Virus record (IMG/VR): IMGVR_UViG_3300024999_000053 | Span: 53,964 to 117,963 of that record | DNA length: 64,000 bases | DNA from: a virus | Strand: one strand, 5' to 3' | Shown: positions 3,517 through 54,618 of the stretch, in pieces | Layout: each line of letters starts with the position of its first letter | Numbering within the stretch: the first letter of the stretch is position 1 | Position numbers and translations under genes: made by a program | Notes under the pieces: model-generated | Database searches by the model: none | Seen by the model: the letters and a program-made list of their open reading frames with translations, nothing else | What the model was told of the DNA's origin: nothing

Positions 3517-4908
3517 ATGCAAAAAGATTTTTCAAAACGTCCATTCGGATTAATAAGTTCTCCACCTGATGATAGAGATTATTCTTTATCAAAATTAATG
3601 TCAGTTGTTGGAATGTCTACACCAATTGAACCTGAACCAGATATATTTGAATATGAAGTGCCAGATATTAAAGATCAAGGAGATATCTGGCTTTGTGTTA
3701 GTGCGTCTGGATGTGTCCAGAGGGAGATAATTGAAAAACAACAGACTGGTGAATATAAAAAATTATCAATAGGATTTAACTACACCTTTAGAGAAAATTG
3801 GGATCTTCAGGAAAAGGGTTTGCGTCTTAGAGAATATTTAAAGGGGTTAGTAAAGTATGGAATACCTGAATATGAGTATTTTCAAATACAAGATAAAGAA
3901 TACCCTTTCATTAAAGAGGAATTAGGTAAGGTAAATTTACCAAGTGTATTAAAAAATGCACATGAGCATCGCATCACAGCTTTTGCCAACATAAAACAAG
4001 AAGAAATTAAACTAGCTTTAAGAACTCTTGGCCCAGTTTTAGTTAGTATTAGTATATATACTTCTTTTGGATATATCTCAGCAACTAATCCAATTATTCC
4101 TATACCAGATGTAAAAAAAGAACGAGTTTTTAATGGTCATTGTTTATTAATAATTGGTTATAACAATCAAACTAAACTATTTAAAATAGCTAATTCGTAT
4201 GGTAAAGGTTGGGCAGATAATGGATGTTGCTATGCAAGTTATGATTACAAATTTCAAGAATTGTGGAGTATTACAGACCTTGAAAAACCAAATTACACCC
4301 ACGACTTCAAATTAAATTTCACAACAAACAAAACTCAAACTACTCCTAATAACACAATTAATCTCTCATTTTCAACATTCGATTCAATCACACCTTTAGG
4401 AACTCAAACTATTGAATGTAGAATGCAATGTGGAAATTCATCATCTCAATATACATATACCACCAATTCAAAAGGAATAGTTAATGAGAATATAGTTCTT
4501 AATAAAGTAGGAGTAACAAAAATCACATGTTCTTGGAAATCTCCAGATAATAAAATTAATACAAAAACTATAAATGTATTAGTAGAACCAAAACAAATCA
4601 ATCCTATTACTCCTATTGAACCTAAGAAAATTTATTCATTATCTATTTCATCAGACAAAAGCAAATGTAATGTTAAATATATATTTTATATTACAATTAA
4701 AACATCAGCACCAAATCAATTAATTTCATTAAAAACTATTAGGTCAAATGGTAAAATTCGTAATACTACTGAGAAAACAGATAATAAAGGTGAATTTGAG
4801 ATGGGATTTGCTGAAGGTGTTGTAGGGATATTTAAACAAGAAGTAAGTTGGAAAGATGGTAATAATGAAATTAGAAGTGCAAGTGTAAATGTTAATATTG
4901 TAAAGTAG
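3517..4908 (+). CDS. C1 (papain-family) cysteine peptidase with C-terminal beta-rich Ig-like domains
   Basis: DQGDIWLC, GHCLLIIGY, IANSYGKGW catalytic motifs; D.RDY N-terminus. Confidence 0.85.
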   Translation: MQKDFSKRPFGLISSPPDDRDYSLSKLMSVVGMSTPIEPEPDIFEYEVPDIKDQGDIWLCVSASGCVQREIIEKQQTGEYKKLSIGFNYTFRENWDLQEKGLRLREYLKGLVKYGIPEYEYFQIQDKEYPFIKEELGKVNLPSVLKNAHEHRITAFANIKQEEIKLALRTLGPVLVSISIYTSFGYISATNPIIPIPDVKKERVFNGHCLLIIGYNNQTKLFKIANSYGKGWADNGCCYASYDYKFQELWSITDLEKPNYTHDFKLNFTTNKTQTTPNNTINLSFSTFDSITPLGTQTIECRMQCGNSSSQYTYTTNSKGIVNENIVLNKVGVTKITCSWKSPDNKINTKTINVLVEPKQINPITPIEPKKIYSLSISSDKSKCNVKYIFYITIKTSAPNQLISLKTIRSNGKIRNTTEKTDNKGEFEMGFAEGVVGIFKQEVSWKDGNNEIRSASVNVNIVK

Positions 4909-6963: not shown

Positions 6964-7080
6964 ATGACAATTATAAAAAATATTATTAACAAGATTGATA
7001 AATTATACACAAATTTCTGCATCGCTTTATATTTTGGTGCAAGAAGGATTTTATTGAAACTTGATTTAATTGAGTATTAA
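6964..7080 (+). CDS. Small hypothetical protein (38 aa)
   Basis: GGAG RBS within holin 3' end, ATG 6964 to TAA 7080. Confidence 0.4.
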   Translation: MTIIKNIINKIDKLYTNFCIALYFGARRILLKLDLIEY

Positions 7081-7349
7081 CAAAACCAATAACCCATAAT
7101 AATAAATTTTAAACAACCTTTAAGCGTTTCAAATACAAGAGTGGTATAATCTTATACAAAAACTATTTGCTACGCTTAGAGGTGTATTGTGGTTTCTATA
7201 ACCCTTGTTACAGTAGGGTTTTATGTGGCAACAAATTAAAAAAGTAATTGAGGTAAGTTAAATATTATGACTTATATTTATTCTGTGGTGGTTGGTATTT
7301 TGATTTATAGTATTTATATTATTCATCTATCTATGAGAGAATCATAAAT

Positions 7350-7440
7350 CCGAGCAAATTCCAGTTTTAATGGATAGGTATAGACTAGGTAGTAAATCGA
7401 AGTAATCAAGAGCAAATGAAAGTATAAGAGAGGTAAAATA
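7350..7440 (+). repeat. AAA-N7-TTT core plus 55-bp arm, copy 1 (homologous to 39652-39742)
   Basis: Arm 7386-7440 matches 39688-39742 at 46/55 with identical 17-nt spacing to the core. Confidence 0.8.
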
Positions 7441-7534
7441 GGGTATAAAACGTAATTTAGGTTAATTTGATAATATTTAGTTGGTTTTGGAGAGATGGTT
7501 TTATGATCATCTCTCTTTTATTATTGATAATTTT

Positions 7535-7599
7535 ACTAAATGGCTTTTATGGGTAGCTCCCATATCAAAAAGAAGGTGTCCTTTCCTTCGCCATTTAGT
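7535..7599 (+). ncRNA. Three-way-junction leader RNA, copy A
   Basis: Outer stem ACTAAATGGC/GCCATTTAGT; hairpin TATGGG-TAGCT-CCCATA; hairpin GAAGG-TGTCCTTT-CCTTC. Confidence 0.6.
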
Positions 7600-7666
7600 T
7601 TTTATATTTTTAAATTAAAGGACAAGAAAAAGTGAATAAAAATAAAAAAGAAAAGGACGTGTTAAA

Positions 7667-8788
7667 ATGGAAAATGTATTAACAAAAGTTTATGAAGAAC
7701 AAGAAGTAGCATTCAGAGAAAACAATGGACAAAGTGAAGTAAGAATTGATGAAGTGGCTAGATTTTGTGGTTGGACAGAAATTGCAAAAAGCGGAAATGA
7801 ATGCATTAAATGGGCAAGAGTCAATAAACATTTAGTTGATTTAGGAGCGTCGACAGTAGTGGCGACAGGTGATTTTATTCCAGAATACATTATGTATCCA
7901 CTTATAGGTAAAGCAAAAAATGATAGAGCAACACAATTTATGTTATGGGTAGGAAAGGTATTAGTAGAAATTAGACAGAATGGTGCTTATATTTCTCCAA
8001 ATATAACAGAAGAGCAAGAAATCAAGTTAGATAAATTCTCGACAAATAAAAAGATGAAGAATACATTCAAAACTTGTAATATAGAATCGATAGAGAATGA
8101 ATATCGTGAATGCATGATGTATCATAAAAATAAAGATGGTAAAGAGAAAAATGGTATTCAGAATATAATAATTAATGCTTTAAGTGACAGAAAACAAACA
8201 TTAATAGATAGTGGCAAAGGGTCTTTTGCTTTAGTTTTAGCAGAAGTTGTGAATACAATCTCAAAAAAGAAAACTGAAACTAGCAATAAGAGAAATGGAC
8301 AAACAATTAGATATAAGAATGGAATTATAGATAAGCAGACACAAATAATCAATGAAAAGGATGAGGAGTTAAATAATTTAGAAAGTAAACTGAATTATTA
8401 TGAACCAGAAGACTATGAATGGATTGAGTTAAATGTCCATCCATTTTCTCATAATTACATGACAAGCGCAGCAAAAGATTGGAATACTGGAAATCCAAAA
8501 ATCGTCAAGAGTGAAGGATATTACAAATGGCAAAATAAATTTCCATATCAAGAACTTCCTACATTTGATGATTTAGGAATAGATTTTAATAAAAGAGTTT
8601 GTGCTTGGTTTAGATTTGTTGCAAAATCAACTTTTGACCCAACTAATTGTTCAAAAACTGCATTAGATACTATATGTAAGTATTACGACGTAGATGATAA
8701 TAAAATAGAAATGATGGAGTGCAAGAAAATAAATAGTTGTAAAGAATTTTGGGAAGGAAAAATCTATATAGCATTTAGGAATCAATAA
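7667..8788 (+). CDS. BRO-N/antirepressor-like protein with C-terminal RusA-like domain
   Basis: DEVARFCGW...FIPE...A..F..WV...L.EIR.NGAY (BRO-N); C-terminal FDPTNCSKTALD...DDNKI. Confidence 0.7.
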   Translation: MENVLTKVYEEQEVAFRENNGQSEVRIDEVARFCGWTEIAKSGNECIKWARVNKHLVDLGASTVVATGDFIPEYIMYPLIGKAKNDRATQFMLWVGKVLVEIRQNGAYISPNITEEQEIKLDKFSTNKKMKNTFKTCNIESIENEYRECMMYHKNKDGKEKNGIQNIIINALSDRKQTLIDSGKGSFALVLAEVVNTISKKKTETSNKRNGQTIRYKNGIIDKQTQIINEKDEELNNLESKLNYYEPEDYEWIELNVHPFSHNYMTSAAKDWNTGNPKIVKSEGYYKWQNKFPYQELPTFDDLGIDFNKRVCAWFRFVAKSTFDPTNCSKTALDTICKYYDVDDNKIEMMECKKINSCKEFWEGKIYIAFRNQ

Positions 8789-8872
8789 TACATAAATAAA
8801 ATAATATTGAATAACGAGGGGTTGTCCGATCTGGACAACTCTTTAATAATCAATAAAAGGAGAAATAAAACA

Positions 8873-9136
8873 ATGCACACCTATTTAAAATTAAATGAAG
8901 AAAAGTTAGATTTATTGATTAAAGTATTACATGATTCACAATATGAAACTGAACATGAAAAGGTCATAGCAAATGAATTATATGAGAAATTTAGACATTT
9001 GTGTTTAGATAATTTTTATAATCTTGGTGAAGGTTGGGATGATGAAGAGGAAGATGTGGATGAGAATTGTGAAAATGATTTATCTCTTGTGAAGAAAAAG
9101 GATATAGCAGGTTATGATGATGATTTGGGTTGGTAA
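8873..9136 (+). CDS. Hypothetical acidic protein
   Basis: AAAGGAG RBS before ATG 8873. Confidence 0.6.
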   Translation: MHTYLKLNEEKLDLLIKVLHDSQYETEHEKVIANELYEKFRHLCLDNFYNLGEGWDDEEEDVDENCENDLSLVKKKDIAGYDDDLGW

Positions 9137-9280
9137 TACTTGTCCAATTTAATTATGTACAGATAGAACGCATATCCTATTAGTAAATTAATAAATAAAG
9201 TTAACAAATAAAATATTTCAATAGAAATTGAGACATTTCATTAATTTGAAGTGTCTTTTATTTGTGTTGAAATAACACAT

Positions 9281-9338
9281 AAGCAGACTAGGATAGGCCA
9301 TCCGAAAGAAACACTCGCCTTAGTGTTTTTGTCTGCTT
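9281..9338 (+). ncRNA. Three-way-junction leader RNA, copy B
   Basis: Outer stem AAGCAGAC/GTCTGCTT; GGAT-AGGCC-ATCC; AAACACT-CGCCTT-AGTGTTT. Confidence 0.6.
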
Positions 9339-9385
9339 CTATTTTTTAATAATTAAGGCAAATAATAAAAGAAGGCGGTATAAAA

Positions 9386-11242
9386 ATGATTAAATGTATG
9401 TTAGACAGAAAGACTTTTGCAAAGAAACCAAATGGATTTGAATCTAGTGGAATCCAACTAAGATTAATTAAAACAGAAATAGAAATTGAAGAATTAGCAA
9501 ATTTATTGTGCAATGGAGCAACATTTAAACCTGCATATCTTAATGGTACTAAAAGTAAAGATTGGATCAGTCAACAAATATTTGCTTTAGATTTTGATGA
9601 AGGGACTACTATTGCTAAAGAGTTAGAAAGATGTAAGGAGTTAAATATTAATCCAGTATTCGGGTATAAAACATTTTCTTATACAGAATATAAAGAGAAA
9701 TTTAGACTAGTATTTTGTAATAATGAAGTAATAACTGATGTTGAGATAAGGAATGACTTTCAAAATCTATTAATTAAATTATTCTCTAATAGTGATAGTG
9801 TTACTTTTGATCCTACTAGACTATTCTTTGGAGGTAAAGGGTTAATAGAGTGTAATTATAATAATAAAATAAATGTTAAAGAAATAATGGAAAATAATAA
9901 AGATTTATTAAATGAAATAAATAATGATAATAATAAATCTCTTTCTTCTTCAAATAAATCATCTAAGGGTAAATTGAGCTTTCTCAATACTAATACACTA
10001 AACTCTTCTTCTATTAGTATTGCAGAAGCTCACACTCCTACCCCTATGGGCGTTACAGGTGTTTTAGGGAATATTGAGGCTATAAAATCCCTTGATATTG
10101 TTGCTATGAAGGAAATTCTTAATATTGATGAAGAATTTAAAACAATATGTACTAATAAGCAAGAAGTTTATAATTATATGAATGGAATAGACTTGTGTGA
10201 ATTTACAAATATCTATGGAATGATAAATTGTATTCTACCAGAACACGAAGATGATACACCTTCTGCTCATATCTATGAAACAGATAATGGTACTCAGATA
10301 TATAAGTGTTTTGGATGTAAAGCAAAATATACAATAATATCGTTAGTAGAGAAATTAGCAAAATGTAAAAGAGTCAAAGCTATAGAATTTATTAAACAGG
10401 TTTATAATATTGAATTGCAACAAACTGAATGGCAAAAAGAACAATTAGAAATACTCGATACGAATATAGAATTATTGTTGTCCGATGAATTTAAGGAGAT
10501 TTATCCACAGTTACATTCATTAATAAGGACTAGGAAATCTAATCTCATTGCATTAAATAATTATGCCAAGATGAATGTTAAGGACGAGGATTTTAGTCTA
10601 GATGGAAATCCATTATTCTTTGTATCTTTAAATAATTTGATGGACGTATTTGGATCAAAAGATAAAACTAGAACATCTCAAAGTATTACATTATTTACTT
10701 TACTTAGTTTACTTAATAAAATTCCTCATGATAATTTGCCAGAAGAAACTTTAAAGAAAGCAAAACATATTGCTGCAAAATATAAGCATAAGAAGTTGGT
10801 TAATTATTATAGTATTGATCAATATGGAACAGAAACTTTAGAAGAAAGTAATAAGATTGCTATTTTATTAAAGGAAAACAATATTTCTTTGAAGGGTTTG
10901 TCAAGAGAATATTTACTGAGGACTTTTGGCGTAGAATTTACTAATAAGGTATTCCCTCAATATGAATATGAGAATAATTTAGGAACAACAGAACAATCCG
11001 ATGAAAATAGTAGTAGATTAGTTGGATACATATTGAAAGGAATAGAGGTACAAGGATATGTATTAGAGAAAGATTTAAAAGTAAATGGTATGACTGAGAA
11101 TCAATGGAGACGTAGTATTCAGGAAATATTGGATAGTTATGGATTGGTAAAGGTGACTGCTAATAAGGAGATTAAAGAAAAATATAATATTGATTGTCCT
11201 GTTAGAAGTTATCCTAAAATTATTATTAAGAGGGATAACTAA
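9386..11242 (+). CDS. Primase-polymerase (AEP-like) plus CHC2 zinc-finger replication protein
   Basis: IFALDFD, KFRLVF, D.TRLFFG N-domain; CILPEHEDDTPSA...YKCFGC zinc finger. Confidence 0.7.
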   Translation: MIKCMLDRKTFAKKPNGFESSGIQLRLIKTEIEIEELANLLCNGATFKPAYLNGTKSKDWISQQIFALDFDEGTTIAKELERCKELNINPVFGYKTFSYTEYKEKFRLVFCNNEVITDVEIRNDFQNLLIKLFSNSDSVTFDPTRLFFGGKGLIECNYNNKINVKEIMENNKDLLNEINNDNNKSLSSSNKSSKGKLSFLNTNTLNSSSISIAEAHTPTPMGVTGVLGNIEAIKSLDIVAMKEILNIDEEFKTICTNKQEVYNYMNGIDLCEFTNIYGMINCILPEHEDDTPSAHIYETDNGTQIYKCFGCKAKYTIISLVEKLAKCKRVKAIEFIKQVYNIELQQTEWQKEQLEILDTNIELLLSDEFKEIYPQLHSLIRTRKSNLIALNNYAKMNVKDEDFSLDGNPLFFVSLNNLMDVFGSKDKTRTSQSITLFTLLSLLNKIPHDNLPEETLKKAKHIAAKYKHKKLVNYYSIDQYGTETLEESNKIAILLKENNISLKGLSREYLLRTFGVEFTNKVFPQYEYENNLGTTEQSDENSSRLVGYILKGIEVQGYVLEKDLKVNGMTENQWRRSIQEILDSYGLVKVTANKEIKEKYNIDCPVRSYPKIIIKRDN

Positions 11243-11243
11243 T

Positions 11244-11966
11244 ATGCAGAATAATTTAGTTTATAAATTCTATAATAGCAATAATGAATTACTTTATGTT
11301 GGTATCACAAATAGTATGAAACTTAGGCTAAAGCAACACAAGCAAGATAAAGAATGGTTTACTGAAATCAAAAAAATATGTGTTAGTGATAAAATGACTA
11401 GGAATGAAGCACATATCTATGAAATATACTATATTGCAAATGAAAATCCAAAATATAATGTAGACTATATCAATGGTGGCAAGGTAAGTTTTATGATGGG
11501 TGAATTATCATTCAAAGAATATAAAAAAGAGAAGAGAAAGAAGATAGACGTTGATGTTGTTTTGAGAATGTATAATGAAGGTAAATCAATAGATGAAATA
11601 GCCACAGAATTAAAATACTCTACTGAATACATTACTCAAAACTTGAGATCAAAATTAATAGAATTAGGGGAAGTAAAACCAAATCGTAGAAATGGGAAAA
11701 ATGAAAGATTTGAAATGTTTGTTAATTGTCTTACATACTTGTCTAATAAAAAATATTTTACAATAGAAGATATTGTATATAAGTTCATGAATGATTATGA
11801 ATGTACAGAGGAAACTGCAAAAACATATTATAAAGACGAGTTTGCAGTTTTACTTATTGAAGAGGTTAATAAAATAGGTTTGAAAAGAATTAGAGCGAAT
11901 AAGATAATTAAAGAGCAATTTGGAATGATAGGGGATGGGTATCCATTTATTATTTGTGAAATTTAA
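11244..11966 (+). CDS. GIY-YIG nuclease plus HTH plus C-terminus paralogous to the upstream primase
   Basis: VYKFY...LLYVGIT...RLKQH; HTH GKSIDEIATEL; RBS GAGGG before ATG 11244. Confidence 0.75.
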   Translation: MQNNLVYKFYNSNNELLYVGITNSMKLRLKQHKQDKEWFTEIKKICVSDKMTRNEAHIYEIYYIANENPKYNVDYINGGKVSFMMGELSFKEYKKEKRKKIDVDVVLRMYNEGKSIDEIATELKYSTEYITQNLRSKLIELGEVKPNRRNGKNERFEMFVNCLTYLSNKKYFTIEDIVYKFMNDYECTEETAKTYYKDEFAVLLIEEVNKIGLKRIRANKIIKEQFGMIGDGYPFIICEI

Positions 11967-11996
11967 TAATAAATCAATAAAAGGAGTGGATACTTA

Positions 11997-12221
11997 ATGA
12001 GTAACAATTGCAAATACTGTTCTAATAATAAATCTGATGAGATTAATGAGATTATTATTTCAAATAAAGATAATATATGGAATGAAGATGAAGAATTTTT
12101 CATTTATATAGAAGACAATTTAATGATTATGTTGGAAGCAGACGATAATGGTTCAAGTTATCTTGGAGATAGGGTAATTAATTATTGTCCAATGTGTGGA
12201 AGGAAATTGAATGATAAGTAA
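11997..12221 (+). CDS. Small zinc-ribbon phage protein
   Basis: CKYC...INYCPMCGRKL. Confidence 0.75.
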   Translation: MSNNCKYCSNNKSDEINEIIISNKDNIWNEDEEFFIYIEDNLMIMLEADDNGSSYLGDRVINYCPMCGRKLNDK

Positions 12222-12241
12222 GTTATAAATAAATATCCCCA

Positions 12242-12271
12242 TTGACATAAATATAAAAATAATGTTACAAT
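12242..12271 (+). promoter_or_regulatory. sigmaA promoter TTGACA-18-TACAAT (extended -10)
   Basis: Near-consensus boxes with TG. Confidence 0.65.
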
Positions 12272-12276
12272 ACATT

Positions 12277-12368
12277 TGTAAATGATTCATTATTATTTTC
12301 CATTTCATTTACACTCTCTTTCTTTGTGAGGGAGTTCTAATTTTATTAGGATTCCCTCTATTTTTTTC
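12277..12368 (+). ncRNA. Candidate small RNA ending in an intrinsic terminator
   Basis: Promoter upstream, no RBS-led ORF, hairpin TGTAAATGA/TCATTTACA, terminator GAGGGA...TCCCTC plus T-run at 12328-12367. Confidence 0.45.
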
Positions 12369-12591
12369 TTTTTATTAGTTTCTAAACATTTATTATGAAT
12401 CATAATTTAAATCATGTTTCATAAATGATATTTCTAATAATAATTAATATGATAATTATCAAGATATTATAAATGATAATAAATATAATTACATATTCAA
12501 TTATTAATTAATGCAAAAATAAAATCCCTTGACTTCTGCACTAGATTGTGCTATGATAAGTCATCTGAAATAAGGGGAGAGTGCTAATATT

Positions 12592-12894
12592 ATGTTAAGT
12601 TCTGTTATATATGGGGTACTGAATAAAGTTTTAGACATAACAGGAGAGGTAGATTGTAATTTAGTGGATAATTGTAGACTAGAATTAATGGTAGACAAAA
12701 TATCATGTGAAGATTTTGTTCAGAAGACCAAGCATTTTATACTAGAAGAAGATATTTTGAGCTACAATGAAAAAGATTCTAAATTTGTTTTAAAAGTTAC
12801 TATGAATTTAACAGAAGACTTTATAAACAAAGTAATCGCTTATGCAAAACAATATTGTTTAGAGGAATTTGAAGAAATGAAGAAAAATAAGTAA
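12592..12894 (+). CDS. Hypothetical protein with own sigmaA promoter (TTGACT...TATGAT near 12530)
   Basis: RBS AAGGGGAGAG; promoter; downstream hairpin. Confidence 0.65.
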   Translation: MLSSVIYGVLNKVLDITGEVDCNLVDNCRLELMVDKISCEDFVQKTKHFILEEDILSYNEKDSKFVLKVTMNLTEDFINKVIAYAKQYCLEEFEEMKKNK

Positions 12895-13126
12895 GTAATT
12901 AACTGAATAAAGGGGAATTAAATTTCCCTTTCCTCTTTTACATTTGTATAAATACAAAAATAAAATTATCCTTGACAATAAAATATGCTAGTGGTATAGT
13001 TAGGACAAGAGAAAGCGAGGTGAGGGAATATATGATTGTATTAGCAGATATCAATACATAAATTACAAAGTTTACAATCTCCATAAATTAAAAAATAAAA
13101 TAATAAACGAAAGAGGTAATTTGTAA

Positions 13127-13369
13127 ATGAATCAAAATATTATTAATGCAAAAGTTAAAATTGTAACAGTTGATGGAAAAGAATATATCCAATTAGAAGG
13201 TGATACAATGGTTGATGAAATGAGTGGTCGAATATTTGTTGCAAGAATGAGTTTAGAAGATGTAAAATATTCTGTTGGTATGGGAGAAGATGGTAATAGA
13301 ACTGGTGATATTACATTTAAACTTTCTCCCGATGAAAGTCATCAGATGGTGAGTTATAGTTTTAGGTAA
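13127..13369 (+). CDS. Hypothetical protein
   Basis: RBS AGAGG; TTGACA-17-TATAGT promoter at 12972. Confidence 0.65.
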   Translation: MNQNIINAKVKIVTVDGKEYIQLEGDTMVDEMSGRIFVARMSLEDVKYSVGMGEDGNRTGDITFKLSPDESHQMVSYSFR

Positions 13370-13454
13370 GTTAGTAAATTACCCATAGCAGAGGGGTTAT
13401 ACTCTGCTGATTAATTACTAAATGCACAAATAAATATATAGGAGATGATTTATT

Positions 13455-13745
13455 ATGATGCAATTTATACATGGATCAAGACAATTAATAGATAGTTTAG
13501 TTTGTAATTATTGTGAAATAAAATCTAATAATTATATTGAAGCAGAATATCGAGAAAATGAAGAATATGATGTAAAATGGTCTTGTGATAATTGTGGTAA
13601 AGAAAATAATATACATATGACTTCTACTATTAAGGGAGGTTTCGCACTTCCACCTAGTTATGGCAGAGAAATAATTGTAATGCCAAATTGGAAAGTTCTT
13701 AAAGAACATGTGATTGAATTACCAAAAGGTACATGTATTATTTAA
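13455..13745 (+). CDS. Hypothetical zinc-binding protein
   Basis: CNYC and CDNC; AGGAG RBS. Confidence 0.6.
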   Translation: MMQFIHGSRQLIDSLVCNYCEIKSNNYIEAEYRENEEYDVKWSCDNCGKENNIHMTSTIKGGFALPPSYGREIIVMPNWKVLKEHVIELPKGTCII

Positions 13746-13848
13746 AATATAGTTTTAATAAAAGTAAAGTTAATAAATAAAATATACGGGAGAGAACTTG
13801 CAAGTGTAATGGGTGGCCACCCTCCCTGATCAGGAGGATGATTTAATA

Positions 13849-14847
13849 TTGGAAGAGAACGTTTTTATGGTTGAATACATAATTGAGAATGGTTTAGATA
13901 AATTAGCATATGGTTTTATTTATATAACTACTAATTTAATTAATGAGAAGAAATATATTGGTCAAAAGATTTTTGACGATTATGGAAATGGTAGATGGAG
14001 GAAATATTTAGGTAGTGGGAAATATTACAAAAGAGCAGAAAGTTTATATGGAAAAGATAATTTTTCCAGAATTATTGTTGCAATTGCTTATTCTAAAGAA
14101 GAACTTAATGAGTTAGAAATGATATTTATAAAAAAATATAATGCCGTAAAAAATATAAATTTTTACAATATAACCGAAGGAGGAGGTGGAATGTCAGGAT
14201 ATCGTCTATCAGAAGAAACTATTCAAAAAATACGTAAGAAAAATTTAAATATGTCTAAAGAGACAAAGGATAAAATGAGTAAATCAGCAAAAGGTAAAAT
14301 TGTCTCAGAAGAAACAAAGCAAAGAATGAGTGCATCTCACTTTGGAAATAAACACTCAAAAGATACTATACAAAAAATGAAAAAACCAAAAACCGAAGAA
14401 CATAAATTAAAAGTCGGTTTGGCGTTAAGGGGGAGAAAAAGAACAGAAGAACACAATAGAAAATTAAGTATCGCATTAAAAGGAAAGAAACACTCTTTAG
14501 AAACCATAGAGAAATTTAAATTAATACAAAAAGGTGAAAGAAACCCAATGTATGGTAAACATCATTCAAATGAAACAAAAAATAGAATTCGTAAATCAAA
14601 AATTGGACGCTGTTTAGGAGAGGATAACCCCAATGCAAAAAAAGTTATATGTATCAACACATTTAAAATATTTTCAACTCTAAAAGAAGGAGCCAGTTTT
14701 TATAATGTTTGTGAATCAAGTATATCACTATGTTGTAACAAAAAGTTAAAATCAGCAGGTAAACATCCAATTACAAATGAAAAATTAGTCTGGCAATATT
14801 ATTCAGAATACATAAAGTCAAACCCTCCACTTCCAACTGCAATATGA
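13849..14847 (+). CDS. GIY-YIG homing endonuclease with NUMOD3 repeats and NUMOD1-like C-terminus
   Basis: GFIYITTNLINEKKYIGQK, YLGSG, FYNI; repeats SEETKQRMS/HSLET/NPMYGKHHS; TTG start after AGGAGG. Confidence 0.9.
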   Translation: MEENVFMVEYIIENGLDKLAYGFIYITTNLINEKKYIGQKIFDDYGNGRWRKYLGSGKYYKRAESLYGKDNFSRIIVAIAYSKEELNELEMIFIKKYNAVKNINFYNITEGGGGMSGYRLSEETIQKIRKKNLNMSKETKDKMSKSAKGKIVSEETKQRMSASHFGNKHSKDTIQKMKKPKTEEHKLKVGLALRGRKRTEEHNRKLSIALKGKKHSLETIEKFKLIQKGERNPMYGKHHSNETKNRIRKSKIGRCLGEDNPNAKKVICINTFKIFSTLKEGASFYNVCESSISLCCNKKLKSAGKHPITNEKLVWQYYSEYIKSNPPLPTAI

Positions 14848-14889
14848 CCAAATACATAAATAAATTATTCTATCCATTAAAGCAAATTT

Positions 14890-14968
14890 TGAGGACTAAC
14901 AATTAGATAGTGCAATATCTAATAAAAGTAAAAGAATACTCACTCCTCTACTTTTAAGTTAGTCCTCA
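14890..14968 (+). ncRNA. Three-way-junction leader RNA, probable copy C
   Basis: Outer stem TGAGGACTAAC/GTTAGTCCTCA; ATTAGATA-GTGCAA-TATCTAAT; AAAAGTA/TACTTTT. Confidence 0.5.
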
Positions 14969-15012
14969 TTAATATAAATAATTTATTATAAATTGGATGA
15001 GGTGATATAAAA

Positions 15013-15384
15013 ATAAAAATCGAAATAGGAAGCACAAGAATAGTTTTTGTATTTAATAAATTTGTGATTAAAATTCCTAATCTATTCGTTCAATATGACC
15101 ATTTTCTTTATGGATTATTAGCAAATTTAAAAGAAAAGAATATGTCAGGTAAACATAAAGATTTAGCAAAAGTCTTTTATTGCAATAATCTTGGAATATT
15201 TTTAATTATGGAAAAAGCAGAAGTTGTATTAAATGATATAGACATTGGTGAGTTTTGTGATTTATTAACTGATAAATATAAGGATGATAAATTAAAAGAA
15301 TTTATGTTGTCGGATTGGAAACCTAGTAACTGGGGTTATATACGAGGGAGATTAGTAAAAATTGATTATGGAGATTTTAAGTAA
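15013..15384 (+). CDS. Minimal protein-kinase-like protein (probable ATA start)
   Basis: GSTR loop, VIKIP lysine, IMEKA hinge, DWKPSN catalytic loop, IDYG; RBS GAGGTGA before in-frame ATA 15013. Confidence 0.6.
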   Translation: MKIEIGSTRIVFVFNKFVIKIPNLFVQYDHFLYGLLANLKEKNMSGKHKDLAKVFYCNNLGIFLIMEKAEVVLNDIDIGEFCDLLTDKYKDDKLKEFMLSDWKPSNWGYIRGRLVKIDYGDFK

Positions 15385-15428
15385 GTTTAAGAAGGATTAA
15401 TTATATTAATTTAAGGAGGTGATATAAA

Positions 15429-15539
15429 ATGGAAACTATTAAATTATCTATTGAAGAAGTTATTAAAATATTGGAATCTAAGACAGATAAAGATCAAAAT
15501 ACTTTTAAAATAATAAATGCATTGAAAGGACTTGAATAA
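15429..15539 (+). CDS. Small hypothetical protein (36 aa)
   Basis: AAGGAGGTGA RBS. Confidence 0.55.
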   Translation: METIKLSIEEVIKILESKTDKDQNTFKIINALKGLE

Positions 15540-15833
15540 ATGAATGAAATAAGTAAAGAAGAAAGACAAGTAATTATTGATAATTTTAATTATGAACATA
15601 ATAAATTATTTTTAAGAATGGAGTACAAACCAATTATCGATCAGATTTTAGACTTATTATCTGACAATAAAATAACTCTTGATAATGCTATTTCTATCTT
15701 AGATTGGACAAAAGATGAAATAGAGAATATGAAAATTGTTAGGGGAGGAAATGTGCCAAAATATTTCAGTTCAGCTCATTATATTAATTCTGTAAATTGT
15801 GTAGGTCAATGTGTCAAGGATGTAATGGAATAA
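15540..15833 (+). CDS. Hypothetical protein
   Basis: Abuts upstream stop, AAAGGA RBS. Confidence 0.6.
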   Translation: MNEISKEERQVIIDNFNYEHNKLFLRMEYKPIIDQILDLLSDNKITLDNAISILDWTKDEIENMKIVRGGNVPKYFSSAHYINSVNCVGQCVKDVME

Positions 15834-15875
15834 GAGACTGTATTTAAATTATTAAGTAGTAAAAGAGGTGATATA

Positions 15876-16016
15876 ATGGAAAAGTTTTTAAATGAATTGA
15901 GTTCAGTTTGGAATGATTTTTCAGATGAGGCGAGAGATAATTGGGCAATATTGCTTGGTGGTAAGAATGGTAAGAGTGAAGTTATGGCTATTATGAGTAA
16001 GGAAGATGATATATAA
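15876..16016 (+). CDS. Small protein (46 aa) resembling a tape-measure core segment
   Basis: GAGGTGA RBS; FLNELSSVWNDFSDEARDNWAILLGGK. Confidence 0.5.
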   Translation: MEKFLNELSSVWNDFSDEARDNWAILLGGKNGKSEVMAIMSKEDDI

Positions 16017-16107
16017 AAGAGTGCTGGTAACACTCTCTGGGAAATAATTTATGTAGTGAGAGCAAATAAAAATAAATGGGTGATGGCCGACATTAAGGAG
16101 AAAATAT

Positions 16108-16707
16108 ATGATTTATTTATTGGACGAAATTAATTTATTAACACAATTGAATTCTTTAGGGAAAATTAAGAGCAAAATTATCAATATAGATACAGGAGAA
16201 TTAATTTTAGATAGATTAGAAGTGGCATCTCAGAATAAAGAGTTAATACATACACAATGGTTAAGAGGAATTGGAAAGACACATGGATTAGTTAAATTTG
16301 CTAAGAAATATGGGTATATTGTTTTTCATCCAAATGCAACACAAATTATAGAAGAAGAGGGATATAAATATATTTATGGATGGTATGAAGTACATAATGC
16401 TAAAAGAGAAACAGATATAAGAAATGTAGTGATTGATGAAGGTTTTAGCGATTCACAAATTATGACCATAAAAGAACATGGTTTTAAAATAATCACTGGA
16501 TTTTATACTTGCTCCAAAATAAAAGACGAAAGACCATTTAGTGAAAAAGTATTAGAAACCCTTGTAGGCGAAATAGAGGAACTTACTCCTAAATTGGAGA
16601 AACTTAGAAAAAGTGAGGACTATGGGACATATAAGAATCTGATCAATGCTTATAAAGAAATTTTAGGTTTAATACAAAATCATATACAAAATTACGATAT
16701 TAAGTAA
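16108..16707 (+). CDS. Small P-loop NTPase-like protein
   Basis: RGIGKT and VVIDEG motifs. Confidence 0.5.
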   Translation: MIYLLDEINLLTQLNSLGKIKSKIINIDTGELILDRLEVASQNKELIHTQWLRGIGKTHGLVKFAKKYGYIVFHPNATQIIEEEGYKYIYGWYEVHNAKRETDIRNVVIDEGFSDSQIMTIKEHGFKIITGFYTCSKIKDERPFSEKVLETLVGEIEELTPKLEKLRKSEDYGTYKNLINAYKEILGLIQNHIQNYDIK

Positions 16708-16719
16708 ACTAGTAAACAA

Positions 16720-16755
16720 ATACTCCTAACTGCTTTAATTAGTAGTTAGGAGTAT
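16720..16755. terminator. Bidirectional terminator-like hairpin between convergent genes
   Basis: ATACTCCTAACTGCT...AGTAGTTAGGAGTAT. Confidence 0.7.
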
Positions 16756-16782
16756 CAATATAAGAATTAGAGAATAATTATT

Positions 16783-17055
16783 CTATTTCCACTTTTCATT
16801 TTCTTCGGTATCTTTTAATTTTTCTTCTTCAGTTTTAATTCTCATAAAGAACATAAGATAACCACAATCATTGCATATTTGTGTAATAGTTGGTGCATGA
16901 TTTATTGTAAGCCCTGGTGATTCCATACGAATACAAGCAACCATGTTAAACGGTTTAACATTTTCACTTTTACATATTGGACAAGTTATTGGGAAATTTG
17001 GATTTCTTTGGGAATTTATGCTTGTGTCTCCAGTTGTATACACATATTTAGACAT
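16783..17055 (-). CDS. Zinc-ribbon protein
   Basis: CPIC and CNDCGY; GGAGG RBS before ATG 17055. Confidence 0.7.
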   Translation of the reverse strand: MSKYVYTTGDTSINSQRNPNFPITCPICKSENVKPFNMVACIRMESPGLTINHAPTITQICNDCGYLMFFMRIKTEEEKLKDTEENEKWK

Positions 17056-17224
17056 TGATTTAATACCTCCTATCTTAGTTATAATCATTGGATAATATGT
17101 GCATGTATATTATACCATTATTCATCGTAATTATACTAATCTAAACTGCAGTTTAGATAGTTTTATTTATCCAATAAAAGTATGTTTTCCTGCGGTAAGT
17201 TAAATTTAATAATAGGAGTAAATA

Positions 17225-17369
17225 ATGAAAAATAATGATAGAGTTTTTATTGTCAGTAAAGAAAAAATCAAAGCAGTTTTTAGAAGATAGTAAAAAGAAT
17301 GTTATTAGTCCTGAATTTTTGAAGAAATGTTTGTATGCTTATAAGATGTTGAATAAGGGAAGGGAATAG
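17225..17369 (+). pseudogene. Small gene with +1 frameshift in an A6 run
   Basis: Removing one A yields MKNNDRVFIVSKEKSKQFLEDSKKNVISPEFLKKC...RE*. Confidence 0.5.
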
Positions 17370-17382
17370 GAGGAAAATTATT

Positions 17383-17568
17383 ATGTCTGGTTTGACACCT
17401 AAAAAGAAAGAAGAATTGAAACAGATGATGGGTAAGTATTCAGGGAAAGTTGGATTGAGTTTGTTGTTGAGGGAGAATAGGGATGTAGATGATATTATTC
17501 CTATTAATTGGTCTGAGGATGTTTTGAGTGGTAAGAAGAGGGTTTTGATTTGTGGGTGTGATGATTAG
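17383..17568 (+). CDS. Hypothetical protein
   Basis: AGGAGG RBS; terminator at 17605-17627. Confidence 0.6.
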   Translation: MSGLTPKKKEELKQMMGKYSGKVGLSLLLRENRDVDDIIPINWSEDVLSGKKRVLICGCDD

Positions 17569-17662
17569 AGTTAGTTTATATAATTTTATATTGATTTAGT
17601 TTTTGAGAGCTGTTTAGGCTCTTTTTTGTTTTGTTTGGGTTTTTAAGTGAAATTGAATTTAA

Positions 17663-17754
17663 TATTGGTTGGATAGGAGTCAGGCCAGACTTTTATCTGT
17701 AAAACGAGACACTTTAGTTTTCCTTAGAACTTGAGTGTCTTATTCCAATTAGTA
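17663..17754 (+). ncRNA. Three-way-junction leader RNA, copy D
   Basis: Outer stem TATTGGTTGG/CCAATTAGTA; ATAGGAGTC-AGGCCA-GACTTTTAT; GAGACACT/AGTGTCTT with TTCCTTA loop. Confidence 0.55.
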
Positions 17755-17779
17755 AACCTATTAAGGAAGGGGATAAATA

Positions 17780-52872: not shown

Positions 52873-54618
52873 CTAGAATCTAAATTTTACTACACTTGGA
52901 GCATACATATATTCTTCAATCATAACTTGTGGTGTAATTTTACCCATGTATTCATTAACACTAAATTTACCAATGGCAGTAAGATTAATAGCAGGATGAC
53001 TTTTGATTTCATTAAATTTTTCTTCATTGGTAAAAAACTTAATTAATGAGATTCCATTGAATTTAAACTTAATTGTATTTTTGTTTTTACCCATTAATTC
53101 AATATCACTTGTATTGATTAATAAATTTTCTAAAGCGAACAATGGCTCATCTACTGAGTTTCCCCAAATGTTTTTATGTTTCCCTACTGATTCAATTAAA
53201 ATCTTATTTAGTGTTTTTTCAGTAAAAATTGCATCAACATCAAACAATAAGAAATTTGAAACTTCCATCTCTCCAACCATTGTATATAACTCATCCATTT
53301 TTTCACTAGGAACTGAAATTCCACAAGCATTAGGATGACCCAAAGCATAATCAAACAAACCACTATTATTACACCATTTTTTAACATCTTTAATATCTTT
53401 TTTATCATATCCTCTGGCACTTCCTGCAAAACTACTACCATGAGCACTAAGTAAGAAACATGGTCTTTGATAAAAATTAGTAAGTTTATTTGCTAATAGT
53501 CCATTTAATGATTTCTCAGTAAGTCCAGTTGCATTGAGAATTATAATTCCATTATTGTCCAATTTAAAATCATTTACTTGAGTTTTAGCTATTTCCATTG
53601 CATCATCTACGAGTTTCTTTTGTTTTCTCTTACATTTCCCTGCGATACGTACAACGTAATCTTGAAGAGATAGTTCGACTTCTCCTTTCCCTCTAATTTT
53701 ATCAATATGTGGTTCATCGATATTGAGGAATGCTTTGAACATTAATTCTTTTTCTTCGTATGTCCCCATTCTGATTAATGCATTGACTAGAGGAGCAATA
53801 TAGAATCCGATTCCGATAATAGATACTTCATTTTTCATATCATACGCCTTATCTTTAACTAAAGCTGAAATGAATTTGTTCTTATTTTGTTCTTTGGACA
53901 TTTGTTTGATGCCCTTTAAGACTAAATAACGACTCTCTAAGTTCCTTAAATCTGCAACGTCAGCAATCATACCAACAGCTACTAAATCGAGGTAATTGTC
54001 TGCGAAATTTAGGTTTAATTTCTTATCAATGTATGTAAAGAATTTCCAACAAACCCCTACTCCTGTCATAGATTTGTTCGTAACCTTTTGAGAGAGTTGA
54101 TTATTTATAACAATTGCATCTTCACTGTATCGATCACATTCATGATGGTCTAAAACTAAAATGTCAATTCCTTTTTTCTTGTAATATTTATGTTGTGCAT
54201 AGTCATTACTCGATGAATCTGGTAAAATTATTAAACTACAATCAAACTTATGGATTTTAGTCATTGTAATATCATCTAATCCATGTGCTTTATCGTCGTG
54301 AATAACGAAATGAAGTTTAGCTTTACTCCCAAATTTTTCGATTAGAAGTGAAGCATACTGATAGGTAAAAGAAGCACTAGAACTACCATCAAAATCTGGG
54401 TCTACTACAATGACGATATCACTTCCTAATTCAATATGCCTCATTAAACACTTATATCCTAATTCCATATTATCATATAAGTCCTCGGATTCTAAGTGAG
54501 ATTCATTAGGATTAAGAAAATCAGGGATATTGATAATGTCTCTGTTTTTTAAAACAGTATCTAATATATTATTAAATCCTATTACATTACCCTTTAGGCT
54601 ATATTTAAAATTACTCAT
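52873..54618 (-). CDS. recJ: RecJ-like DHH exonuclease (YorK-like)
   Basis: VDPDFDG, HG, LDHH, G.GV, G.IAD, GSARG, GHPNACG. Confidence 0.9.
   Translation of the reverse strand: MSNFKYSLKGNVIGFNNILDTVLKNRDIINIPDFLNPNESHLESEDLYDNMELGYKCLMRHIELGSDIVIVVDPDFDGSSSASFTYQYASLLIEKFGSKAKLHFVIHDDKAHGLDDITMTKIHKFDCSLIILPDSSSNDYAQHKYYKKKGIDILVLDHHECDRYSEDAIVINNQLSQKVTNKSMTGVGVCWKFFTYIDKKLNLNFADNYLDLVAVGMIADVADLRNLESRYLVLKGIKQMSKEQNKNKFISALVKDKAYDMKNEVSIIGIGFYIAPLVNALIRMGTYEEKELMFKAFLNIDEPHIDKIRGKGEVELSLQDYVVRIAGKCKRKQKKLVDDAMEIAKTQVNDFKLDNNGIIILNATGLTEKSLNGLLANKLTNFYQRPCFLLSAHGSSFAGSARGYDKKDIKDVKKWCNNSGLFDYALGHPNACGISVPSEKMDELYTMVGEMEVSNFLLFDVDAIFTEKTLNKILIESVGKHKNIWGNSVDEPLFALENLLINTSDIELMGKNKNTIKFKFNGISLIKFFTNEEKFNEIKSHPAINLTAIGKFSVNEYMGKITPQVMIEEYMYAPSVVKFRF

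Follow-up and report, generated by a model that had tools for sequence, protein, structure and literature searches.

Candidate three-way-junction leader RNAs related to the int-alpA motif, with a loop that co-varies with the downstream ribosome binding site

The stretch analyzed here (the window, 64,000 nucleotides) is the right-hand 64 kb, positions 53,964 to 117,963, of one 117,963-bp virus contig of 29% G+C, IMG/VR record IMGVR_UViG_3300024999_000053, and the sequencing runs that contain most of it are groundwater metagenomes. Between 5 and 20 kb its plus strand carries, in order, an endolysin and a holin-like gene, a homologue of the anti-repressor Ant, a primase-like gene and endonucleases (Table 1). 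In front of four genes in this region lie the elements that concern us, A to D, each of which folds as a three-way junction, and in A, B and D the loop of the second hairpin (loop 2) is complementary to the leader of the gene behind. Among relatives of these elements loop 2 changes together with two sites in the leader, one of them the ribosome binding site, and B appears to be a divergent member of the int-alpA RNA family (RF02996) in Rfam. The elements had been picked out in an original prediction made from the window, which described the four downstream genes as potentially toxic; the Ant, primase-like and endonuclease-like assignments were borne out, while the gene behind C, taken then to be kinase-like, belongs to phrog_4301, a family of unknown function.

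For all four elements the minimum-free-energy structure of the plus strand is an outer stem around two hairpins, as predicted, with z-scores from -3.4 to -6.1, and both the palindromes in loop 1 and the complementarities between loop 2 and the leaders lie where they had been placed. A structural descriptor run over the whole 117,963-bp genome on both strands yielded 412 candidate junctions, and in order of energy per base the A to D loci held 7 of the top 10 places (the two strands of a locus being counted separately). Adding a match of loop 2 to two sites within the next 90 nt left 15 hits in the genome, of which A ranked first and B second and the other 13 were weak and G-U-rich. The junction is retained in nested folds of the whole A and B leaders, which leave the Shine-Dalgarno region unpaired, so that only a pseudoknot with loop 2 could mask the site. 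The G-U pairs of D exist solely on the plus strand, and A, B and D are each preceded by a terminator-like hairpin.

Table 1. Features of the window and loop/target sets of relatives at other loci. Positions without a locus name refer to the window; L numbers denote loci fetched from public contigs.
Feature	Position	Strand	Details
Terminator-like hairpin and T run	7489-7516	+	directly before A
Element A	7535-7599	+	-25.6 kcal/mol, z -5.6; outer stem 10 bp; hairpin 1 loop TAGCT
A, loop 1 palindrome	7555-7558	+	AGCT
A, hairpin 2 loop	7577-7584	+	TGTCCTTT
A, upstream ("decoy") target copy	7617-7624	+	AAAGGACA; eight Watson-Crick pairs with loop 2
A, Shine-Dalgarno target copy	7652-7659	+	AAAGGACG; Ant start ATG 7667
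A, Shine-Dalgarno copy, extended	7652-7660	+	AAAGGACGT; nine pairs with loop 2, two of them G-U
Anti-repressor Ant homologue (phrog_2011)	7667-8788	+	downstream of A
Terminator-like hairpin	9230-9257	+	before B; conserved, compensating changes in AT-rich relatives
Small hairpin	about 9262-9279	+	before B; conserved, compensating changes in AT-rich relatives
Element B	9281-9338	+	-20.1 kcal/mol, z -3.4; outer stem 8 bp, TA, GGAT-AGGCC-ATCC, GAAAG, hairpin 2, TT
B, loop 1 palindrome	9296-9299	+	GGCC
B, hairpin 2 loop	9316-9321	+	CGCCTT
B, upstream target copy	9354-9359	+	TAAGGC
B, Shine-Dalgarno target copy	9372-9377	+	AAGGCG (AAGGCGG to 9378); primase-like gene, ATG 9386
Primase-like gene	9386-11242	+	downstream of B
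GIY-YIG endonuclease	11190-11966	+	
GIY-YIG endonuclease	13813-14847	+	
Element C	14890-14968	.	plus strand -26.0 kcal/mol, z -6.1; minus strand z -7.2
C, loop 1 palindrome	14911-14914	+	TGCA
Open reading frame of phrog_4301	from about 15007	+	function unknown; downstream of C
Terminator-like hairpin	17605-17623	+	before D
Element D	17663-17754	+	-31.1 kcal/mol, z -4.1; minus strand -22.5 kcal/mol
D, loop 1 palindrome	17683-17686	+	GGCC in loop AGGCCA
D, loop of long hairpin 2	17720-17726	+	presents TTCCTTA
D, single target	17762-17768	+	TAAGGAA (TTAAGGAA at 17761-17768); Shine-Dalgarno of endonuclease-like gene, ATG 17780
Homing-endonuclease-like gene (phrog_9084)	17780-19813	+	downstream of D
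L001, loop 2 / upstream copy / Shine-Dalgarno copy			TGCCTTT / AAAGGCA / AAAGGCG
L110, same order			CCTCCCTGC / GCAGGGA / GCAGGGAGG
L045, same order			CTCTCAG / CTGAGA / CTGGGAG
L146, same order			ATCTGCA / TGCAGA / GCAGA
L103, same order			ATCCTGGA / TCCAGGA / CAGGA
L014, same order			AATCCTTA / TTAAGGA / AAGGA; B-like backbone before D-type gene
L017 element	L017:2499-2565		loop 1 AGTCATGA, loop 2 TTCCTG, two CAGGAA sites; AT-rich leader, other backbone
L134 element	L134:6739-6809		loop 1 AGGCC, loop 2 with TTCCGAT, sites ATCGGAA and TCGGAAGG; AT-rich leader, other backbone
L140 element	L140:4114-4178		loop 2 TCTCTCT, sites CAGAGAGA and TAGAGAGA; counterpart on L139, minus strand; AT-rich leader, other backbone

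In four virus contigs homologues of the primase-like gene are likewise preceded by a junction, in the position that B occupies here. Covariance models built from B and L001 (R1) or from six AT-rich sequences including B (R2), on which B scores 83 and 71.5 bits, respectively, found further copies before other genes, and a scan of public contigs with an 18-nt pattern for the hairpin-1 motif returned 66 virus and 67 metagenome loci, of which 12 and 55, respectively, match R2 with scores that the pattern inflates. Covariation among homologs had been set beforehand as a check on the prediction, and it was found: across 41 distinct B-type metagenome sequences 13 of the 17 stem pairs change on both sides, comprising 8 of 8 pairs in the outer stem and 5 of 5 in hairpin 2, and pairing is kept in 92.9% of cells, as opposed to 63% in shuffles and 27-48% when the 3' partner was slid. 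Among the B-type relatives G-U and U-G combinations number 19 and A-C and C-A combinations 4, an excess which argues that the structure belongs to the sense-strand RNA. The B-type backbone precedes primase, helicase-like, GIY-YIG, treble-clef, other endonuclease-like and unknown genes and, with A standing before Ant, the claim that the module is portable held up. More than one copy with its own address occurs not only in the window (A, B and D) but also at several other loci, which have two each.

Loop 2 differs greatly from one relative to the next, and its changes are mirrored at two downstream sites, namely an upstream copy located 6-23 nt behind the junction and a second copy just before the start codon (Table 1). 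Two paralogous elements 3.7 kb apart in L003 differ by one base in the loop (AACTCAC versus AACTCGC), and both targets track the change (GTGAGT and GTGAG versus GCGAGT and GCGAG). Several ribosome sites depart from the consensus exactly where loop 2 matches them, AAGGCG in B being an example, and in L110, L045, L116 and the L003 paralogues the Shine-Dalgarno copy tracks loop 2 outside the core of the ribosome site. For the statistics we began with 70 elements, 55 from the B-type set and 15 others including A to D, dropped those that were not folded as a junction or were misfolded (L046, L086, L088/L124/L128, L090, L106 and L138) as well as those with less than 70-80 nt of downstream sequence, and kept one element per distinct loop, which left 29. 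With Watson-Crick pairs only, the best run was 5.97 for the element's own leader and 4.06 for other leaders, the second site gave 4.69 and 2.68, respectively, and none of 50,000 permutations reached either observed value; when G-U pairs were also counted, the advantage of the own leader over permuted leaders had a p of about 5e-5. Of the 29 distinct loops, 20 had two sites of 5 bp or more, compared with 16% of cross pairs. Given that more than 20 loop types have matching targets, inheritance of one chance match is unlikely, and the co-variation of the loop with the downstream ribosome binding site, which lay at the center of the original prediction, is well supported by these relatives.

Loop 1 was likewise found to have a distinct character. 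A 4-nt palindrome is present in 11 of 12 distinct loops, where the 7,697 hairpin loops of this genome predict 2.5, and for the 6 loop-1 types that can conservatively be called independent P is about 0.001. The palindromes are AGCT, GGCC, TGCA, GATC, TGATCA and TCATGA, with L012 as the exception, and a palindrome in loop 1 was no search criterion. They lie off-center, towards the 3' side of the loop, and so do not merely represent the apex of an extended palindrome in the DNA. Palindromy of loop 1 is a genuine property of the elements, and it may serve RNA-RNA pairing.

The gathering cut-off of the Rfam int-alpA model, RF02996, is 35.8 bits. L105, a GC-rich relative found with the B-derived model, scores 58.9 bits on it, 12 of 20 further loci pass, and an AT-rich element in L139 that precedes a primase homologue, and has the first 27 bases and the outer stem in common with B, scores 46.7 bits; where tested, the relatives found with R2 are int-alpA RNAs by Rfam, and B is connected to the family through such intermediates. 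B also corresponds part for part to the int-alpA consensus, in which an outer stem of 8 bp encloses UA, a hairpin of 4 bp whose 5-nt loop is palindromic, GAAAR, a hairpin of 5 bp and two junction bases; in the consensus loop 1, gAcgu, is a palindrome, its loop 2 contains CCuU, and its 3' purine tail, AgGG, corresponds to the upstream target copy. B has these stem lengths and junction bases, and A, C and D keep the three-way shape without those bases. The window elements themselves score below the model, with no hit at the gathering cut-off, none at E-values up to 10 in 11 kb or in 146 nt around B, and none genome-wide, and 0 of 15 other AT-rich B-type loci pass the gathering cut-off with the Rfam filters. 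Taken together, the shared stems and junction bases and the relatives that pass Rfam identify B, as judged by sequence comparison, as a divergent AT-rich branch of this catalogued family. A comparison with Rfam had been named as the test of novelty, and its outcome is divided: the B type evidently belongs to RF02996, while for int-alpA no stated function was found and the window copies lie below its model.

RF02996 is a computer-predicted motif. The literature covered assigns it no function that we could find: in the paper that describes it (PMC5737381) the main text is silent on the motif, and the supplement of that paper, which lay outside our coverage, may already note the pseudoknot or the match to the ribosome binding site. 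The term int-alpA otherwise occurs as an entry in a list of small RNAs or as a gene order, with no function given, and the motif letters gave no match in relevant papers. Going by the family name, we take the usual location of int-alpA to be between the integrase and alpA genes of integrated elements. The L105 RNA lies between a P4-type integrase with small open reading frames and a variable open reading frame, which is followed by a helix-turn-helix protein and a DUF927 primase. The setting in the window differs from that implied by the name: the elements lie in the early or replication region of a virus contig of 118 kb, a genome carries several copies with different addresses, and the neighbors are endolysin, holin-like, Ant, primase and endonuclease genes rather than integrase and alpA.

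Given that loop 2 tracks the ribosome binding site at positions unneeded for ribosome binding, and that the site is otherwise unpaired, control of initiation in cis is the simplest reading of these elements. On balance we favor, by a modest degree, the view that A, B and D (with C doubtful) are cis-acting leader RNAs of the int-alpA kind that form a portable translational gate, in which loop 2 would alternate between the decoy and the Shine-Dalgarno sequence. The elements would occupy the sense strand between the boundary of the preceding transcription unit and the gene, and the second hairpin would present 6-9 unpaired bases complementary to the Shine-Dalgarno sequence of that gene and, in most members, also to the upstream near-copy, of which the loop would hold one at a time. 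Pairing with the upstream copy would give a compact pseudoknot with the ribosome site open, and pairing with the Shine-Dalgarno copy would block initiation, the module thereby setting or gating translation of the gene behind it. Since loop and targets change together, each copy would be private, and several copies would be workable side by side in one genome.

The palindrome in loop 1 (4-6 nt) could add a further layer. Two RNAs might pair loop to loop, and the pair would bring a second loop 2, so that both copies could be occupied and repression would grow with RNA concentration. We consider it possible, though somewhat unlikely when taken as a whole, that int-alpA-type junctions are natural re-addressable switches of this fuller kind, combining a toggle between loop, decoy and ribosome binding site with palindrome-driven RNA pairing for dose-dependent repression, and that mutually blind copies set the timing of toxic genes, among them endonucleases, Ant and replication starters, or limit their expression. 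We infer translational control, the direction of its effect, the toggle and the dimer from sequence and predicted folding, as is also the case for the silencing and the kissing switch put forward in the original prediction; the mechanistic reading is plausible and, as far as we searched, not in print.

Several observations weigh against the favored view of a cis-acting gate. The two target copies are about equally good partners of loop 2, so that the resting state, on or off, is unreadable from sequence, and D and some relatives have one target site only. When loop 2 was ranked by duplex energy against 208 leaders of the genome, the own leader came 5th for B but 22nd for A and 35th for D, other strong Shine-Dalgarno sites fitting as well, and the case for co-variation accordingly rests on the relatives and not on the window alone; the permutation tests behind it ignore relatedness and shared descent among the sequences. 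Hairpin 1, whose sequence was set by the search pattern, carries no co-variation information, and a loop of 5 nt with a palindrome of 4 nt offers little room for a kissing complex. Rfam types int-alpA as a small-RNA gene and not as a cis-regulator. The sequencing runs that hold the phage, 9 from 4 studies, are all of DNA (groundwater and sediment), with no RNA run listed.

It also counts against the favored view that A (10.6 bits on R2, E-value about 6), C and D are not found by R1 or R2. The four copies had been presented as one family, which was an argument from shape and is not supported: an attempt at a single model for all four recovered the B type alone, and MAFFT alignments of mixed types were structurally wrong. 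A and D, together with L002, L003, L004 and L017, are by the models used here best described as architectural variants with no model link to B. A D-like element with the same loop and target precedes a homologue of the D gene in L012. The relatives of the Ant gene (L006-L010) lack an upstream junction. When the descriptor was run over the fetched loci (1.07 Mb), it gave 72 hits before a start codon, mostly false, and recovered A, L003 and L004; since false hits were many in GC-rich coding DNA, only the hits in AT-rich leaders were used (Table 1).

Membership of C is doubtful. The original prediction had called this copy imperfect, and the result is weaker than that word, given that its loop 2 ranks its own leader 89th of 208, no better than the median leader of the genome; the complementarity of loop 2 to the own leader thus stands for A, B and D, and with the failure of this test the idea that C takes part at all is not supported. 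C also folds 7.6 kcal/mol better on the minus strand. The open reading frame behind it (14999-15384) has a strong Shine-Dalgarno sequence, GAGGTGAT, but no ATG, GTG or TTG until 15064, and it aligns to phrog_4301 only from position 42 of the 225 of the profile; it may have an unusual start codon or be a gene remnant, and no relatives of this gene were found.

Given the resemblance of the elements to the antisense RNAs of P1, P7 and P4, it was reasonable to consider that the junction might be released as a stable small RNA of about 60-90 nt that targets the two repeats both in trans and in cis, as a determinant of immunity or timing in the manner of c4 (icd-ant, P1/P7) or the CI RNA of P4. The C4 consensus on the P4 CI RNA has the same layout, with a U/C-rich second loop, P4 likewise has repeated targets, A precedes an Ant homologue, GC-rich int-alpA members reside in elements with a P4-type integrase and DUF927 primase, and the Rfam typing as a small-RNA gene fits such a product. 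We nonetheless judge it unlikely, given that models match in neither direction (C4 with the window elements, or R2 with P4), that the CCaCC tail of C4 is not found behind the outer stems here, that GC-rich members have no consistent T run after the outer stem and hence no terminator of their own, and that a trans-acting form is not needed when both targets are found in cis immediately downstream. That the int-alpA model ends in the conserved tail AgGG at a fixed distance suggests that the upstream copy is part of the fold, and together with the terminator-like hairpins just upstream of AT-rich members this allows for a structural leader with an opposite or no translational role, in which a fixed pseudoknot would stabilize the 5' region of the mRNA, mark a processing site or keep the leader open, and the likeness to the Shine-Dalgarno sequence would be a by-product of duplication. 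Such a role is improbable, since the Shine-Dalgarno copy follows loop 2 outside the core of the ribosome site (the four cases named above) and the second-site statistic is as strong as the first.

More improbable still is a sensor, in which the int-alpA junction (TA, GAAAR and YT with hairpin 1) would bind a protein or small molecule that decides the partner of loop 2, in the manner of a riboswitch or operator. About 20 bases at hairpin 1 and the junction are indeed the same in AT-rich and GC-rich members while the stems vary freely, but this invariance was largely imposed by the search pattern, A, L002, L003, L004 and L017 differ in the junction and hairpin 1 and yet keep the logic of loop and target, and the downstream genes have no common pathway. 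The better minus-strand fold of C, the proximity of the elements to homing-endonuclease genes, and a comparison of A with L152, in which A has the look of an optional insertion into a leader common to both, could be taken to mean that the elements are not RNA regulators but inverted repeats acting as DNA (terminators, recombination or endonuclease sites, or mobile repeats) or chance folds in AT-rich spacers. We give this hardly any credence in view of the compensating changes in both stems and the sense-strand excess of G-U pairs, the co-variation of loop and leader, the z-scores and genome-wide ranks, and the off-center position of the loop-1 palindromes relative to the stems.

The leaders that carry the junctions have further features of their own. 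A conserved block of about TTTCAATAGAAAT, followed by a terminator-like hairpin that starts with GAGA or GAGG and then by a small hairpin, lies upstream of many B-type junctions before different genes (9180-9280 in the window, and in AT-rich relatives); it may constitute a portable promoter-leader cassette, and no sigma-70-type -35 box could be placed in the block. The hairpin module upstream of A (7441-7540) is 85% identical to L152:6855-6950 (minus strand), where it runs directly into a Shine-Dalgarno site and another gene with no junction, the two sequences diverging just after ACTAAA, the first bases of the outer stem of A. A GTG frame of 16 codons (7632-7682) lies at ribosome-site distance after the decoy of A and ends 16 nt into the Ant gene. 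An upstream reading frame driven by the decoy was considered on the strength of this frame and of ATGs after the decoy in L001 and L002, and was set aside as not general since B and most others have none. An internal promoter was also rejected, in that the -35/-10-like pair overlapping B (TTGAAA, 16-17 nt, TAGGAT) is not kept in L003, L004 or GC-rich members, and promoter-like sites are not enriched (108, versus 113 in shuffles). The lack of a consistent T run in GC-rich members likewise disposed of the junction as a terminator, and a hammerhead-like reading was judged by eye and dropped.

Among the metagenome relatives an identical 56-nt int-alpA element recurs in nine loci (including L091, L098, L099, L112, L126, L129 and L133), with seven different proteins behind it and printed leaders that are near-identical up to the start codon, which looks like cassette exchange exactly at the start codon. 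The idea that the variable reading frames behind identical GC-rich elements are defense genes was dropped, as 0 of 10 proteins downstream of GC-rich elements, five of them from that group, match PADLOC. In L047 a GC-rich B-type junction (3631-3688, minus strand, 35.5 bits on R2) is followed by an apparent short array of repeats of the CRISPR (clustered regularly interspaced short palindromic repeats) type and no gene. Two contigs that carry junction elements also hold, respectively, a group I intron (L065:5275-5522, 86.4 bits) and three tRNA genes (L002:5824-6054).

Elsewhere in the window, the spacers between small open reading frames contain near-consensus sigma-70-type promoters with TG extensions (12242-12271, 12529-12557 and 12972-13000) and a strong terminator (12328-12358), and these differ from the junction-carrying leaders. 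A CCTCC...GGAGG hairpin (13821-13837, with TGATCA in the loop) over the ribosome site of the second GIY-YIG gene was discarded on folding (z +1.2). Searches of the window, of 7000-18000 and of 146 nt around B against Rfam 15 for known RNA classes, including self-cleaving ribozymes, tRNA-like elements and riboswitches, gave only noise; ARAGORN found no tRNA or transfer-messenger RNA in the window; and among cultured phages there was no near match to 15 kb, the sole match to B being a 24-nt chance match.

A loop that changes in step with two leader sites, one of them the ribosome binding site, offers a concrete and testable mechanism for int-alpA, a family for which we found no stated function and which is carried by integrated elements that encode P4-type integrases and primases and, in the present data, by large phages from groundwater. 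If the mechanism is correct, risky mobile genes (homing endonucleases, anti-repressors and replication initiators) travel with their own brake, logic of the C4 kind exists far outside enterobacterial phages, and the elements make up a natural set of orthogonal translational regulators. Should the catalogue match alone hold, the result is a routine one that adds AT-rich phages to the carriers of a known family.

The original prediction had drawn an analogy with C4, and it is in architecture that the likeness lies. C4 RNA is encoded in the leader of the operon that it controls, an anti-repressor or early operon, has repeated targets of which one lies over a ribosome site, and is processed by RNase P. 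The Rfam C4 consensus (RF01695) on the P4 CI RNA is a three-way junction whose second hairpin has a 12-nt antisense loop, the layout seen here, and repeated targets with one over the ribosome site are present for A, B and 20 of the 29 distinct relatives. P1 and P7 C4 differ in specificity, and the private pairs of loop and target resemble that difference. However, C4 has an outer stem of 17 bp with no 5' junction bases, its first loop is of the UUCG type, and a conserved CCaCC tail follows the outer stem, all unlike the elements here, and in P4 one set of the repeated targets (c4-a1b1) lies upstream of the RNA, whereas here both lie downstream and one loop serves both. The C4 model, on which P4 scores 74.9 bits as a positive control, matches no window element at E-values up to 10 on 146 nt, and R2 does not match P4. 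By these models the elements would work like C4 without being members of that family.

A precedent comes from phage T4, in which translation of endonuclease and late genes from read-through transcripts is restrained because the ribosome binding site is buried in RNA structure (PMC2988022). Several of the genes downstream of the elements are likewise endonuclease-like, but in T4 the site itself forms one side of a local hairpin, and the block is relieved by a late promoter that lies within that structure, whereas the elements here would use a distant loop and a decoy copy, with no internal promoter shown. The engineered relatives in design are the cis-repressed riboregulators and toehold-type switches, in which a short programmable segment directed against the ribosome binding site is placed upstream and orthogonal versions are obtained by changing these bases together with the target. 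The elements described here are natural, carry the bases directed against the ribosome binding site in a hairpin loop of a three-way junction, and have a built-in competitor site; were the toggle reading true, an orphan Rfam family would gain a mechanism and engineered riboregulators a natural counterpart.

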